The notes under the pieces were generated by a model, which was not told the origin of the DNA, searched no databases, and saw nothing but the letters and a program-made list of their open reading frames with translations. Made by a program: the position numbers and the translations under genes. A stretch of 64,000 bases of DNA from an uncultured candidate division Zixibacteria bacterium (lineage in GTDB: Bacteria > Zixibacteria > MSB-5A5 > UBA10806): contig CAWFQL010000017.1 in NCBI GenBank assembly GCA_963817915.1, positions 32,001 to 96,000 on the forward strand, read 5' to 3'. Shown piece after piece: positions 28,133 to 52,476 of this stretch; position 1 is the stretch's first letter; every line of letters begins with the position of its first letter.

Positions 28133-29233
28133 ATGAGATGCAGCAAATGTCTAATGCCATCGTTTTTGCCGAATAGCGATTTCAACTCCGAAAAAGAGTG
28201 TTCCTGGTGCCAATCTGGTTATCCTAATTATTCCCCTAAGGGGGCCGACAAATTCCTCAATCAGATTAATCAGTTTAAGAGAAACAACAATAGCGCCGAT
28301 TGTTTGGTTGGGCTTAGCGGTGGCAAAGACAGCTCATATGTATTATTAAAATTGAAGACAGAATTGAATCTTAATATCGAAGCATTCACTTATAATCATT
28401 TTGGTTTAACTGAATTTGCTCTTAACAATGCCAAAACTGTTTGTCAGGATTTAGGTGTGAAGCATCATCTGGTATCTCTGCCAAATGACGAACACCTTAA
28501 ATCTTTTCAGAAGTTCTTTGAAGTATGGATTAATTCGGAAAAGCCCATACCGGCGGCCATGACATGTGTTGCCTGCAAGCATCTTCATACATTAGGTTCT
28601 GAATTGGCTGCGAAACGCAAGATCCCCATGGTTGTCTGGGCAGCGTGTCCGCTGGAAATACCCCCGATATTGCCATTAAAATTACAGTCAAACAAAGAAA
28701 ATCAATTTAAACGGCAGGGAATGATCAAGAGTGCAGTTCAATTGGCAAATGAGACAATTTCTACACCCGGATTTTCGTCAAGTATCATCAAACATTTTCG
28801 GACTAGTCTAATTGGATGTTTAGGTGTCACTCCAACAGCGAAATATCTAAAACTTCGATATCCCTCAGTTAGCCAAATTTTGTATTTTGATTTCTTTGCA
28901 TGGAGTGCCAAACAAATTAGAAAGGATCTAAAAGAAAATACAAATTGGAAATCGCCGGCTGATTTTCCCGATGATTGGCATTCTGACTGCCTGTTCAATA
29001 TATTTAAAGAATATATGTTCCAAAAAATGTACGGGATATCTTATACGGACGCTTTCCTAAGCAATCAGATTCGTTATGGCCTTTTATCCAGAGAAGAATC
29101 GTGGGATATTTTGGTTAATACTAAGAAATTTTATGCTGCCAATATTTTTAAAGTGCTCGACAAAGTGGGACTGGCGCATCTGTCGGATAAAATCGACTCA
29201 TCCTGTTTTGATATGAACGAAGGAATAAATTGA
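28133..29233 (+). CDS. PP-loop ATP pyrophosphatase, N-acetyl-sugar amidotransferase-like
   Basis: N-terminal CSKC..CSWC, PP-loop VGLSGGKDSS, CVAC, HSDC, LSNQIRYG..SREE; AGGAG RBS before ATG 28133. Confidence 0.75.
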   Translation: MRCSKCLMPSFLPNSDFNSEKECSWCQSGYPNYSPKGADKFLNQINQFKRNNNSADCLVGLSGGKDSSYVLLKLKTELNLNIEAFTYNHFGLTEFALNNAKTVCQDLGVKHHLVSLPNDEHLKSFQKFFEVWINSEKPIPAAMTCVACKHLHTLGSELAAKRKIPMVVWAACPLEIPPILPLKLQSNKENQFKRQGMIKSAVQLANETISTPGFSSSIIKHFRTSLIGCLGVTPTAKYLKLRYPSVSQILYFDFFAWSAKQIRKDLKENTNWKSPADFPDDWHSDCLFNIFKEYMFQKMYGISYTDAFLSNQIRYGLLSREESWDILVNTKKFYAANIFKVLDKVGLAHLSDKIDSSCFDMNEGIN

Positions 29234-31042
29234 ATATTTTGGGTGTAAATGCATTCGGCTATAACCCTTCCGCATGTCTGGTTAGAGACGGCAAACTGGT
29301 GGCTTTCTGCCAGGAAGAGCGATTAACAAGATTAAAAGGTTCACACGGATTATTCCCTTCATTGGCGGTGTCATGGTGTTTAAGCAGTCAAAAAATAAAT
29401 CTGCAGGATATAAATAATATCGCCGTCAGTTGGGGATGTGACAAGCATCCCTGGAAAATGATAAGGCATTTAACTAAAGAAAGAATAAAACTATTAAAGT
29501 ACGGCTCATATTATTCGCCATCTTCCATAAATCACAAGGATAGCTTTATTTCTGCTCTGACACATATACGCACTTTCACGCCCAGAAATATAATCAAAAA
29601 TATCCGGGACAATCTTAGGATTTCAGGGCACAAAGGACCAATCCCTCCCATTGAATTCGTTGAGCATCATTTATGCCATGCATTCCAAAGCTTTTATCAA
29701 TCAGGCTTTGATAAAGCATCTGTTCTTGTGGCTGATGGCAGCGGGGAGGAAAATTGTGTTAGCGGCTTCTTGTTCGATAATTACAATCATCAGAGGATAT
29801 TCAATATCGATATTCCGCATTCTCTTGGATGGTTTTACAGCGGTTTTACTTCATATTTGGGATTTAAGCCGATCAGGGACGAAGGTAAAATGATGGGGTT
29901 GGCCGCGTATGGCGAAAAAAGAAAAGAAAATAATATATGGCTGGATAAGCTTGACAATGTACTGAAAATCGGAAAAGAGGGGTTCGAATTAGATCCAACA
30001 TTTTTCAAATTTGGCGGAAATGAATATCATCCTCGATTTACGGATAAAATGGTGAAATTTATAACTTCGAACGAAGCCGAATCTTGAGCCTATTTCATTG
30101 AATGAAAATGTCAGCCAGAATGGGAGCAGTCTCAATAAATATCTTCTTGATGATTATATAGATTTGGCCTATGCCGTACAGTCTCGTCTGGAAGTTGCAG
30201 TCGTAACGTTGGTAAATACGCTGATTAGAAAAACCAAATGTAATGACCTGTGCCTTGCAGGCGGTATATTCATGAATTGCAAGGCTAACGACGTAATTCT
30301 GAATAAAACCGGCATCGATAATATATTTATTCATCCGGCTTCTTCAGACGATGGCTCGTGTATCGGCGCCGCCTTCTATCTTTCCAAGGCGATGGGTTAT
30401 GATCCGCGAAATAAATTGAAAAATACACAGCTCGGACCTTCATTTAGTAATTCAGAAATCGAGAAAGTGCTTAGTACATGCGGGCTGCCTTTTTCGGCCC
30501 CAGACGATATCTGCGCGGAAGTATCAAAACTATTAGCTTCAGGTAAAATGGTCGCGTGGTTTCAAGGCGGATGCGAGATGGGAGCCAGAGCGTTAGGTGG
30601 AAGAAGCATAATTGCATCACCGCTGAATAATGGGATAAAGGCCAAAATTAACGAATATGCCAAAAGGAGAGAACATTGGCGCCCATATTGTCCCTCTATT
30701 ATTCTTGAACAAGCTGAAAAATATATAGATAAGCCGGCAAATACGCCCTTTATGATTTTAGCGAGACAGTCTACAGACCTATTGCGAAAAGCGGCTCCGG
30801 ACGTTGTTCATGTCGATAATTCGGTTCGTCCTCAGATGGTCCAAAAATCAACACTGCCGCGATGGCATAAGTTAATAGAGGATTTTGGAGTTCTCACAGG
30901 GCATCCAGTAATTTTAAATACATCGTTGAATGTCCGAGGTGAACCAATGGCCTGCCGACCCCATGACGCGATTAACTATTTATATTCGACAGGATTAGAC
31001 GCCCTGGCCATAGAAGATTTTCTGGTCATCAAGAATCGTTAA
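29230..31042 (+). CDS. Carbamoyltransferase (NodU/CmcH family), frameshift near 30080
   Basis: EERLTR.K, EHHLCHA, DGSGE, EGKMMGLAAYG in the first ORF; LAGG..MNC, DDG..IGAA, EMGARALGGRSI, RE.WRP, VHVD.S.RPQ, LNTS.N in the second. Confidence 0.88.
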
Positions 31043-33931: not shown

Positions 33932-34483
33932 ATGAAAAGAAGAAGAAATTTAATAGATGATTCAATTAATCCGATTTTTATTACCACCACTATTACAAAT
34001 TGGATCCCAGTGTTTGGAATTAATGATCTATGCCTTGAAGCACTCCAAATCTTCAACAAGCAATGCGAGGAACTGAAGACAAAGGTCTTCGCCTATGTTT
34101 TAATGCCGAATCATTTTCATTGTATTATTCAATCATCTAACAAGGGTGATGTCTCTTTATTAATGCAGAGATGGAAAAGCCTAACCGCAAGAAAGATTAT
34201 CGCATATTGTTTACACAACAAACGTGATTGGTTGAATAGATTTGCTAATGCGGCAGGCAAATACAAAAGGCAAAAAGATGAGTCTTATCAGGTATGGTTG
34301 CCTAGGTTTGACGATTTCGCTATCAGGGATGAAGATCAATTTCTAACCAAACTCAATTATATTCATGGCAATCCTTTGAAGCATAATTTAGTCGATGAGT
34401 GTAGTAAATATAAATTCAGTAGTTTCTCGAACTATCATGGTGGAGATAATTCCTATATTAAAATTACAAAATTCAGGGAGTAG
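33932..34483 (+). mobile_element. REP-associated tyrosine transposase (RAYT/TnpA-REP, HUH Y1 family)
   Basis: FITTT, AYVLMPNHFH (HUH), VW.PRFDD..IR, LNYIHGNP (catalytic Tyr), YKFSS; flanked by inverted palindromes. Confidence 0.88.
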
Positions 34484-34518: not shown

Positions 34519-34607
34519 AAAGAATTCTAACCCCAAACCCCACTTCTCATAGGAGAGGGGAGAGTCACATTCGCTTGTTGTGGTGAGGTAATTAATGAAA
34601 GGATATT

Positions 34608-35055: not shown

Positions 35056-35253
35056 TGCGAGTCAGGGCTTGCCCTGACCGCCCCAAACCTGTCATTCCGC
35101 ATCCGTCGGTCGCCGGACTGAAGACAGCTTGACGCGGAATCCAGTCACATTATCGTCGGGTCAGGCGACCCGACGACATTAATTGGGTGGCAGTCGTACT
35201 CGACTGCCCCGAAGATAAGACGCCTTAGGGGCAGCCAGGGATGGCTGCCGCCC
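35056..35253. repeat. Mosaic REP cluster of four families
   Basis: TGCGAGTCAGGGCTTGCCCTGACCGC (35056-35081); GTCATTCCGCA[26-nt insert]CTTGACGCGGAATCC (35091-35142); CGTCGGGTCAGGCGACCCGACG (35154-35175); inverted doublet GGGTGGCAGTCG..CGACTGCCCC / GGGGCAGCCA..TGGCTGCCGCCC (35185-35253). Confidence 0.88.
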
Positions 35254-35271
35254 AGCGGTACAAGATTTCTT

Positions 35272-35795: not shown

Positions 35796-36079
35796 AAGCT
35801 TGTCATTCCGCACTTGTTGCGGAATCTTGCGTGATATATTTTCGGTTTTGAAATCTATTATTTGTATTCGAGCATATGAATTTAGATTCCCGCATTCGCG
35901 GGAATGACAATGTGGGGAAGCTTGTCATTCCGCACTTGTTGCGGAATCTTGCGTGATATATTTTCGGTTTTGAAATCTATTATTTGTATTCGAGTATATG
36001 AATTTAGATTCCCGCATTCGCGGGAATGACAATGTGGGGAAGCTTGTCATTCCGCACTTGTTGCGGAATCTTGCGTGAT
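35796..36079. repeat. 122-bp tandem repeat (two full units plus a partial third) of a GTCATTCC palindrome doublet
   Basis: Palindrome A GTCATTCCGCACTTGTTGCGGAATC at 35802, 35924 and 36046; inverted palindrome B GATTCCCGCATTCGCGGGAATGAC at 35885 and 36007; the two full units differ by one C/T. Confidence 0.95.
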
Positions 36080-36099
36080 CCTTTTCAGTCGAAAAAAAA

Positions 36100-36384
36100 T
36101 TACAATTCATCATATAAGTCATTCCATTGAGGATTAGACCTTTCAATTGTATTGATCTTCCATTGTCTCCGCCATTTCTTCATACGTTTTTCCCGTTGGA
36201 TCGCCGAATACACATCTTCGGTTGCTTCGAAATATACAAGTTTATGAATATGATACCTTTTTGTAAATCCATCAAAAAGGCCATTCTTATGCTCGTATAC
36301 TCGTCTTTTAAGATCGTTGGTCATTCCAACATATAAAATGCCATTTTTAGCGCTTGCCATTATGTAAATGTAATAGGTTTTCGT
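36100..36384 (-). CDS. Small stand-alone GIY-YIG nuclease family protein; the expected start codon reads ACG
   Basis: YYIYIMAS..LYVGMTNDLKRRVYEHK..GFTKRY..LVYFE..AIQREK.MKKW.R.WK..IE..NP.W.DL; the ORF-track extension to 36435 merely translates palindrome B. Confidence 0.88.
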   Translation of the reverse strand, partial: TKTYYIYIMASAKNGILYVGMTNDLKRRVYEHKNGLFDGFTKRYHIHKLVYFEATEDVYSAIQREKRMKKWRRQWKINTIERSNPQWNDLYDEL

Positions 36385-36401
36385 ATAGCCAAATAAAATT
36401 A

Positions 36402-36465
36402 GATTCCCGCATTCGCGGGAATGACAAGGTAGCAAAACCTGTCATTCCGCATTTATTGCGGAATC
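36402..36465. repeat. Palindromes B and A' upstream of the GIY-YIG gene
   Basis: GATTCCCGCATTCGCGGGAATGAC (36402-36425), GTCATTCCGCATTTATTGCGGAATC (36441-36465); a decayed B at ~36900-36924. Confidence 0.92.
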
Positions 36466-36834: not shown

Positions 36835-36959
36835 ATGTTGTCCTCCAAGTTATTGCGGGATAATTCAAATCTGATAAAATTCGTTTTATTAGCGAATTTG
36901 GATTGCTGTTTTCGCGGGAATGACAGACAACTTGTCTGCCGCCTTGATATGGTCTTGCT

Positions 36960-37843
36960 TTAAACTTAATAGTAAATCACCACTTAGATTGCTGTATTGC
37001 GTCCCAATATTGGTTAGAATGAATCTTCGTTTTTGAAATCGATATAGAATTGGTCTTTACCTTTAATATTCGAGGGCCAATAAGCTACTCAAATAAGCTA
37101 TCTACAAGATCCATCCTGTTCGCATAAAGCATAATTGAAAATTACACGGATAAAATCAGTCGAGGGAAATAAATTTCTTTTGCTAGGGGGTCGTAGTCAG
37201 CTGTTTGTGCTATCATAGGTATTCCAATATAACGCAAATCCTCGGCCGCTCTATTCACTATATAATTCGAAAATTGAAAATTAGCTATTCTGTATTTTTT
37301 GCCGTCCCATTTCCAGATTTGCAGAGGGTGGGGGATTCTGCGCGTTGTTTCTTCCAACAAGTGAACCAGGTATCATAAAATATGATCTCGGGAATCGAGT
37401 CCGTATCCAAATCCGCAAAATCAACATGTGCTCGATCAAAAAATCGACTATCCTTAATTACAATAGAATCGCCCACAGAATAGACATATACATCAGCGCA
37501 GCAATGCTGGCCCCCGTCATTACATTGGAAAATAATTTCCTTTATTCCATCGGAATCAATATCACGACAATACTGATGTTGGATTCCAGATGAGCGGTTT
37601 TCATTGAAGTCGTAAAGCCTAACGAATTCATCCTGTATGTGCTTAATTATTGTATCTCCATTAATTATTTTGAGATCATAAGGAAAAAGCCGTTCGTCAT
37701 AAATTCGGCGATAACTTAAGAATCCGGTATAATTATCTATATTAAAAGTATCTACTGCAACTGTCTTAAAATCAAAATATCATTGTTGATGGATCAAAGC
37801 AGGAAACCAAGATCATAAGTGTAGTATTATTGTCATAAATCAT
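36960..37843 (-). pseudogene. Fragmented hypothetical gene (several frameshifts); boundaries approximate
   Basis: Colinear minus-strand fragments DIDSDGIKEIIF..GGQHCC..FADLDTDSIPEIIF..P..IWKWDGKKY in different frames. Confidence 0.45.
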
Positions 37844-47135: not shown

Positions 47136-47780
47136 CGTCATTTGACCGCGCCACATTAAATCCGCCATCAGGCGGATCCAAAATGTGGCGCTGGATCCCA
47201 GGATCCAAATCGTCACATTGTCCGGCTGTCGCCGGACGAGAAAGCGGGGCCCCCGTCCTTCCACCTTTCGGGGGTTTTCAAAACAAATGCTGAGTGAACG
47301 TGTTTTTGAGATTTGAATTTAGGATGTCGGGTTTCTCATCCGTCATTTGCCGGATTGTAAACTCGCTTCGCTCGTTCGGAACGCCGACCTACTGCTCCCA
47401 TTGGCTGCTGCTCGCAAGATTCCGCGACAAGCGCGGAATGACAAAGCAGGGGACAGGAGGGATGCCTGACGCACGCTTGGAATATAAAGAAAAAAAGTGG
47501 CAGGTCACGCCCGTCTTCGACGGTCTACGACCTGCCATAACTCATATTATTGTAAGGGCGGGTTTGAAACCCGCCCCTACGGAGATATTTGTGGTTTTGA
47601 CAACTGGGATGGATTCCGCATGGAGCCCTATTAATTCCCGCGACCGACGGAAGCGGAATTTCAGGACTGGGGTTTGATGAATCAAACCCCTACAGCGCTA
47701 TCGGGTTTCTCATTCGCTTCGCTCGCTCGGAACGCAGAGCTACTGATCTCGCAAGATTCCGGCTCGGGGGCCGGAATGAC
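47136..47780. repeat. Large mosaic of nested palindromic repeats
   Basis: Nested hairpins at 47136-47211; two related composites at 47324-47442 and 47701-47780; TGGCAGGTC..GACCTGCCA (47498-47537); GTAG-type REPs at 47552-47580 and ~47669-47693. Confidence 0.88.
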
Positions 47781-52061: not shown

Positions 52062-52476
52062 GTCGTCAGGAAGGGATTCCTTACGGGGCGGGGAAAGGAG
52101 GGCACAACATGTTGTGCCCCTACAGGAATAATCGTTCTTTTGCGGGCGGGTTTGATAAATCAAACCCCTACAATCGCATTTTTTATTTTTGTAAAGAGCA
52201 AGATTTCGTTCGGAGACGCAAGATTTTGCGTCTCTACCGGCAATAGCAGTAGGGCAGGAGTCGAAGACTCCTGCCGATCACGGCTTTATGGCAGGAGTGT
52301 ACCACTCCTGCCCTACTCCGACTACAGCGCGGAAAATGGCGGGCAAGATTCCGCATCAAGCCGATTTAGGCCCGCCGTGGTGGGTGCGGAATGACAGGTA
52401 TTACATTTCGGGCGGGTGTGGAGACTACCTTCAGATTGCTTCGGCGACCGACAGGAGCCGGACTTCTCGCAATGAC
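52062..52476. repeat. Mosaic REP cluster
   Basis: GGGCACAACATGTTGTGCCCCTAC (52100-52123); near-copy of 50081-50161 at 52140-52240; inverted GTAGGGCAGGAGT doublet (52249-52316); GATTCCGCATCAAG[24-nt insert]TGCGGAATGAC (52347-52395); CAGATTGCTTCG..CTCGCAATGAC (52432-52476). Confidence 0.9.

Follow-up and report, generated by a model that had tools for sequence, protein, structure and literature searches.

Ssn nucleases are GIY-YIG enzymes that cut single-stranded DNA (ssDNA) just upstream of NTS/SRM hairpins (Chenal et al. 2025; PMC11893778). The family, cd10448, comprises 94-aa single-domain proteins whose genes are flanked by these hairpins, 71% on one side and 42% on both. SsnA of Neisseria meningitidis (NMB0047) binds the hairpin solely as ssDNA, cuts a few bases upstream, and requires Y6, Y17, and E64; binding depends on the C after the stem, and cutting on the three bases before it. 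Ssn cutting is Mg-dependent, confined to ssDNA with no action on dsDNA or RNA, and orientation-dependent, and four purified homologues cut their own hairpins. In N. meningitidis, SsnA reduces the integration of repeat-bearing incoming DNA, and Ssn enzymes have been proposed as ssDNA tools. The NTS-ssnA-NTS arrangement has been likened to IS200/IS605 and REP-associated transposases, with domestication proposed, and the results and discussion of the same paper present cutting, not transposition, of the repeats (PMC11893778). Our literature search, which covered few subscription papers, returned no follow-up showing Ssn mobility.

The hairpins have a counterpart in the CGTC class of REPs, in which CGTC-1 is dRS3 and for which no dedicated transposase is given in the main text of Di Nocera et al. 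2013 (PMC3733652); GIY-YIG has 0 occurrences in that main text. The CGTC-1 and CGTC-2 families, numbered as in the text of that paper, are set by stem and loop length.

Here we describe a locus within a 64,000-nucleotide stretch of DNA from an uncultured Zixibacteria bacterium (the window). With a probability of about 0.85, it is an SRM-ssn-SRM locus, in which a gene for a single-domain GIY-YIG protein of the Ssn family, likely an ssDNA nuclease, is bracketed by inward-facing hairpins with TGTC tags. The pairing of Ssn genes with hairpins is real but already published, in a paper that also sets out the family itself, its association with hairpin flanks, and the comparison with RAYT and IS200 (PMC11893778). 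The locus adds one such pair from a little-studied lineage, and its two hairpin types could have distinct cutting preferences.

Results

An Ssn-family nuclease gene

The gene lies at 36100–36384 on the minus strand and comprises 94 codons from an ACG at 36382–36384. Its product matches Pfam GIY-YIG at E = 9e-16, and PF01541 is the sole family found (residues 21–95 of the 111-aa form); at 94 aa from the ACG, it falls in the size class of the small single-domain Ssn proteins (about 94 aa, <150). The open frame extends upstream to a TTG at 36435, giving a 111-aa product that reads through hairpin B3, and the first ATG falls after the first tyrosine motif. The gene has no match to Y1_Tnp or NF047646 and thus does not qualify as an HUH/Y1 transposase.

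The window protein matches an N. gonorrhoeae homologue by tblastn (E = 2e-22 over 94% of its length) and by blastp, with 41/86 positions identical (48%; pairwise E = 2e-32). With this homologue standing in for N. meningitidis SsnA, the match exceeds the thresholds for Ssn similarity (E < 1e-10, >75% of length). The N. gonorrhoeae ORF encodes 94 aa with tyrosines 6 and 17 and glutamate 64, and lies among 16 tagged hairpins; it is unannotated in its record, and we infer from its length, residue numbering, and flanking NTS copies that it is ssnA. When 105 of 112 proteins (those of 80–125 aa) were aligned, Y6, Y17, G19, H31, E64, K68, R72, and K75 were invariant in 105/105 homologues, the window protein included; the latter has Thr at a position where Leu is kept in 97/105. 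A quick tree (105 rows, 96 columns), which carried a long-branch warning and many open forks, places the window and Neisseria proteins together and sets 10 distant GIY-YIG rows apart, with an SH-aLRT of 94.

Like the described Ssn system, the window has a 94-aa single-domain protein with Y6, Y17, and E64 at the same spacing and hairpins on both sides. It differs from that system in having two hairpin types in A-B pairs and an ACG start; it also differs from the Neisseria and Azospirillum loci, whose nearest hairpins face outward, whereas those of the window face inward. Searching PDB sequences with the window protein returned two UPF0213 proteins only (E = 6e-4 and 4e-3) and no Ssn structure. 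In a protein cluster look-up, the 111-aa product forms a one-member cluster, and the 86-aa and 94-aa forms are absent from the collection. A promoter scan of the locus gave 4 sites, with 4.3 expected.

The 122-bp array and its hairpins

Next to the gene lies a tandem duplication (35796–36079) of 2.3 copies of a 122-bp unit. The two full units, 35796–35917 and 35918–36039, are 122 bp each and 99% identical, with a single difference (C35873 versus T35995), and the repeat runs 40 bp further at 100% identity to 36079; one mismatch in all points to a recent event. Each unit consists, in order, of hairpin A, a 56-bp AT-rich spacer, an inverted hairpin B, and a 15-bp linker. These are represented in unit 1 by hairpin A1 (35802–35826, plus strand), the spacer (35828–35883), and hairpin B1 (35885–35908, minus strand), and in unit 2 by hairpins A2 (35924–35948, plus strand) and B2 (36007–36030, minus strand). 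Hairpin A3 (36046–36070, plus strand) lies 30 bp past the stop of the nuclease gene and hairpin B3 (36402–36425, minus strand) 18 bp ahead of its expected start, both with the tag directed away from the gene. Head to head with B3 is hairpin A4 (36441–36465, plus strand), a variant (A′) in which GCATTTATTGC replaces GCACTTGTTGC and whose sequence is found in A′-B pairs elsewhere in the genome. A decayed B-type hairpin lies at 36901–36924 (minus strand), upstream of the DMT gene.

An earlier sequence-only reading of this DNA had described the unit anatomy and the near identity of units 1 and 2, and had placed the GIY-YIG gene after a third A, closed by B and followed by another A. Its coordinates and order hold, with the one mismatch between units and with the last A a variant, and it had missed the decayed B-type hairpin. 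It had further proposed that the gene replaces the spacer of a third unit. A followed by TTGCGTGAT is indeed present there, but TTGCGTGAT belongs to the 0.3 copy of the duplication and does not demonstrate a replacement. The TTGCG flank that it had also noted is the commonest repeat tail genome-wide and likewise does not demonstrate one.

Searched against the 3.33-Mb assembly (94% complete), the spacer has no copies other than those in the two neighboring units. The 122-bp unit was considered as a dispersed non-autonomous element (REPIN/MITE) and rejected, there being no spacer copies at unrelated sites in that assembly; the unit is a recent local duplication, not a dispersed element. With the spacer confined to two adjacent copies, the suggestion that the empty units are non-autonomous derivatives is weak. 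At both of its ends, the interval that bears the gene does show a weak resemblance to the spacer; once the 8 bases shared beside A are taken out, this alignment beats 993/1000 shuffles (p = 0.007). The match to the interior of the nuclease gene is nearly as strong (16/1000 shuffles, p = 0.016). Because the interior match is about as good, and AT-richness may explain both, the likeness to the interval ends is suggestive only; it would fit an internally deleted copy.

Assignment of the repeats

Hairpin A1 represents a TGTC-tagged, SRM-like REP with an 8-bp stem and a 5-nt loop that follows the published SRM pattern at all positions but one. The dRS3 core is present in all three B copies, as the sequence-only reading had stated, and 19 such cores occur in the genome; B1 agrees with the Neisseria NTS motif at 25/28 positions, with the same stem. 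The published SRM pattern has 27 genome sites at zero mismatches versus 4–9 in five shuffles, and no exact site in the 64-kb window, where A and B copies are each one base off; with one mismatch allowed, A3, B3, and A4 all match, whereas the definition of an Ssn locus looks for an SRM no further than 500 bp away on each side. In both types the GTC that precedes the stem and the C that follows it are kept, and these are the critical positions in PMC11893778. Unlike the SRM, whose tail is CYRG, the repeats here have a tail that is mostly CTTG or CTAT.

CGTC-tagged REPs have an unpaired CGTC/TGTC tag, an 8–9-bp stem opening with AT, and a 4–5-nt loop. A and B share these features, with a TGTC tag, an 8-bp stem starting with AT, a loop of 4 (B) or 5 (A) nt, and occurrence in pairs, and the repeats show the dispersed, multi-copy, often paired habit of such REPs in this genome. 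The tagged-hairpin pattern has 50 matches in the 3.33-Mb assembly, as opposed to 0 for a reversed control pattern, and dispersed A′-B pairs occur at four sites with 17–19-bp spacers and, as a longer composite, at a fifth. The genomes of described Ssn systems hold hundreds of repeats, in contrast to the roughly 50 here. These data support assignment of the repeats to the CGTC/TGTC-tagged REPs of the dRS3 class. They depart from that class as the text of PMC3733652 describes it, with no dedicated enzyme, in having a likely GIY-YIG partner.

All four further A-type copies noted earlier in the window are present. The copy at 47418–47442 (minus strand) carries one compensatory stem change from an A-T to a G-C pair, and that at 47755–47780 (minus strand) has a third loop type and departs from the SRM pattern at more than one position. 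The other two, at 35091–35142 (plus strand) and 52347–52395 (minus strand), are long-loop members of the family and do not fold more stably than shuffled sequence (z = –1.25 and –0.67); the short hairpin copies do, at z = –2.6 to –3.8. Following the long-loop copy at 35091, the interval 35150–35260 holds two more palindromes of other families. Because similar palindromes flank RAYT-like genes on contigs C3 and C21, several repeat families share this intergenic region. A REP-associated tyrosine transposase (RAYT) is encoded at 33932–34483 (NF047646 above cut-off); its flanks have no GTC-tagged hairpins, and a different palindrome lies downstream at about 34530–34565. About eight RAYT-like loci occur in the genome, with their own palindromes.

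Hairpins beside homologous genes

The sequence-only reading had set, as a check, that such palindromes should be enriched in the 200-bp flanks of homologues. We assembled the best 80 of 413 confirmed homologous GTDB stretches and 29 relatives' loci besides the window genome's own, together with a hand-picked control set of 20 loci with weaker, 30–40% identical GIY-YIG matches. To be scored, a hairpin within 200 bp on each side had to show GTC, no fewer than 6 pairs in its 7-bp arm, and C after the stem; loci with short flanks (6 GTDB, 3 relatives, 1 control) were dropped. Tagged hairpins stood on both sides of the gene at 54/74 GTDB loci (among the best 80 of 413) and 14/26 relatives' loci, as against 0/19 of the distant GIY-YIG control genes, and single 200-bp windows further from the gene held hairpins in 23/274 and 2/94 cases. 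The check thus came out positive. Relatives' loci missed by this strict detector carry imperfect-stem variants. A relaxed detector, defined after the flanks had been seen, gave hairpins on both sides at 56/74 GTDB loci (again among the best 80 of 413), 25/26 relatives' loci, and 0/19 controls, with far windows at 37/415, 10/141, and 0/59. In the commonest layout, both tags point away from the gene (35/74 GTDB loci among the best 80 of 413), as they do in the window. The pairing of gene and hairpin is general.

Local arrays beside ssn genes are common. At one locus (L088, G044:C7:54355-54910), about twelve tagged hairpins follow the ssn gene downstream in tandem at roughly 42-bp spacing. By eye, two sub-clades of relatives have distinct hairpin types, with kin sharing labels.

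Repeat number and chromosomal history

Among 60 relatives, the median number of repeats is 24 where an Ssn match at E < 1e-20 is present (n = 29) and 8 where it is absent (n = 31). The set consists mostly of incomplete bins, its kin do not count as independent, and two genomes whose matches are intermediate were assigned to the group lacking the gene. The difference has a Mann-Whitney p of 9e-5 and a within-family permutation p of 0.0085, and the gene is present in 6/6 genomes with at least 40 repeats. Relatives without a detected ssn gene nonetheless reach 37 repeats.

In three genera of one family, ssn lies downstream of the glycine-tRNA ligase gene, the distances being 1.5 kb for the window genome (G000), 1.3 kb for G003, and 2.1 kb for G005. 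Two relatives assembled as a single contig, G006 and G013, have ssn at some other site; in the remaining family genomes, the two genes are on different contigs or one is missing. In G001, ssn has another neighbor in common with the window, and both ssn and the glycine-tRNA ligase gene are near contig ends. The osmC-DMT junction was sought as a candidate empty site in 13 family relatives, of which 2 only had a DMT match, neither at a locus with osmC or ssn. Relative to its syntenic orthologues, ssn has a pN of about 0.2 and a pS of 0.8–0.96; dS against G000 is saturated, so no dN/dS ratio can be given. The window genome has a single Ssn-level match, with its own hairpins on both sides. That three genera share this position relative to the glycine-tRNA ligase gene points to long residence, and ssn appears to be a long-term, single-copy, vertically inherited resident, comparable to a domesticated RAYT.

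G001 carries a tandem duplication of the ssn cassette (L082, G001:C66:74125-76800) that spans 504 bp with 97% identity and encodes two identical proteins 758 bp apart. In the window, the glycine-tRNA ligase and DMT genes are separated by a minus-strand gene (about 37000–37800) that is in two frames and is thus frameshifted or misassembled; its homologue adjoins ssn in G001.

Start codon of the window gene

At 112 loci, start codons were sought over the stretch 3–15 codons ahead of the first motif's second tyrosine, yielding ATG at 103, TTG at 5, GTG at 3, and none at 1, the window gene. There, the expected start is occupied by ACG, which the earlier reading had missed. ACG is reported to be able to initiate translation in E. 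coli (10.1101/063800). With its catalytic residues intact, the window copy of ssn may be expressed at a low level or have begun to decay, and given the ACG and the Thr it may be silent; the ACG probably depresses expression strongly or reflects early decay in this lineage.

Discussion

By flank enrichment and by analogy with the purified homologues of PMC11893778, the small GIY-YIG protein is the likely cognate nuclease of the hairpin repeats. The sequence-only reading had it cutting or propagating GTCATT palindromes; homology favors cutting, and propagation is unproven. In ssDNA, the Ssn protein probably binds the tagged hairpin strand and cuts a few bases 5′ of the tag, as its homologues do. 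With the tags directed outward, each strand would be cut once within the 15-bp linkers that separate B from the following A. The recent 122-bp duplication, a BIME-like local array, would then likely have arisen through slippage or repair at these cuts. The locus resembles REPtrons, RAYTs with REPINs, and BIMEs in its single-copy gene flanked by its own hairpins, its conserved position, and its local tandem arrays, and Ssn shares with RAYTs an ssDNA hairpin substrate. It differs from RAYTs in that the enzyme is a GIY-YIG rather than an HUH/Y1 protein and the tag is GTC rather than GTAG.

The Ssn explanation can be extended, compatibly, to an active RAYT-like mobile system in which Ssn cuts start the copying of hairpin pairs and gene-less A-B pairs, the 122-bp units among them, are passengers. 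We consider this conceivable, at clearly less than even odds. The greater repeat number of relatives with the gene (24 versus 8, with all 6 genomes of at least 40 repeats carrying it), the origin of near homologues from many phyla, the tandem 504-bp, 97% duplication with two identical Ssn proteins in G001, and the five dispersed A′-B pairs with 17–19-bp spacers or a longer composite would all fit such activity, as would the alignment of the 122-bp spacer to the interval that bears the gene, at each of its ends (ahead of 993/1000 shuffles), and the report of CGTC repeats without a transposase in the main text of PMC3733652. Yet the spacer is not dispersed and matches the gene interior about as well (16/1000 shuffles), the ssn position is conserved across genera, and genomes without a detected ssn hold up to 37 repeats; the repeat-number comparison itself draws on mostly incomplete bins and non-independent kin. 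Moreover, GIY-YIG nucleases cut by hydrolysis, so that, unlike for a tyrosine transposase, no joining step is evident, and Ssn is not known to join strands. The results and discussion of PMC11893778 likewise present cutting, not transposition.

A very different account makes the GIY-YIG gene a bystander beside landed hairpins, the repeats having been spread by the RAYT at 33932–34483 or by host recombination. An NF047646 RAYT does lie 1.6 kb away, and the genome holds about eight RAYT-like loci, but none of these (0/8) has tagged hairpins on both sides, their flanks holding other palindromes instead. Across phyla, hairpin enrichment sets the Ssn clade apart, and cutting of their own hairpins is reported for four purified Ssn homologues (PMC11893778); we regard the bystander account as very improbable. 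The neighboring RAYT was specifically considered as mobilizer and rejected, as RAYT-like loci have GTC-tagged hairpins on both sides in 0/8 cases and on one side in 1/8. It is also possible, though we doubt it, and would be compatible with the Ssn explanation, that the window copy is decaying, with its start lost, no functional nuclease made, and the array grown by ordinary replication slippage. Such decay would account for ACG in place of the ATG found in 103/112 homologues and the TTG or GTG in 8, for a branch slightly longer (0.25) than those of the syntenic orthologues (0.08–0.18), and for the frameshifted look of the neighboring gene at about 37000–37800. Set against it are a frame without stop or frameshift, the retention of all catalytic residues, a pN far under pS relative to orthologues, the reported ability of ACG to initiate in E. 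coli (10.1101/063800), and an in-frame TTG at 36435 that would give a 111-aa product; the ACG could also be an assembly error.

Returning to the SRM-ssn-SRM reading, a bolder form of it would make Ssn the missing mobilizer of CGTC REPs, resembling a domesticated RAYT that stays at a fixed site and seeds hairpin pairs around the genome. We offer this tentatively and think it rather unlikely. Were it true, the locus would display a life cycle comprising the gene cassette, an internally deleted and just-duplicated copy, and an ACG start turned down to limit cutting. Propagation of REPs by a hydrolytic GIY-YIG nuclease, if real, would account for how a large repeat super-family reported without an enzyme arose. 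To the question whether Ssn spreads repeats, a hypothesis already in print, our comparison brings modest support from repeat number and a long-kept, RAYT-like position, and no proof. The window genome has dprA and comEC matches; because 10/14 control genomes have them as well, they say little about competence.

Other GIY-YIG loci and additional observations

The distant small GIY-YIG control genes (L112, G000:C16:333747-334618; L111, G000:C12:473891-474106; L113-L130) form a different clade associated with RNA genes. By ARAGORN, 16/20 of these loci have a tRNA and two more a tmRNA. In 8 of 12 loci with an RNA gene called in a further scan, the 3′ 17-mer of the RNA gene recurs downstream at steps of about 320–520 bp. 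In the window genome, tRNA-Met is followed by three such units of gene plus fragment and tmRNA by one; our literature search found no description of these RNA-linked elements.

Separately, the 2.17-Mb record of L131 (NZ_CP119140.1) is labeled a plasmid and is chromosome-sized. In the window, two consecutive ORFs of 285 and 314 aa at 29230–31042 look like halves of one gene, which we take to be carbamoyltransferase-like, split near 30090.
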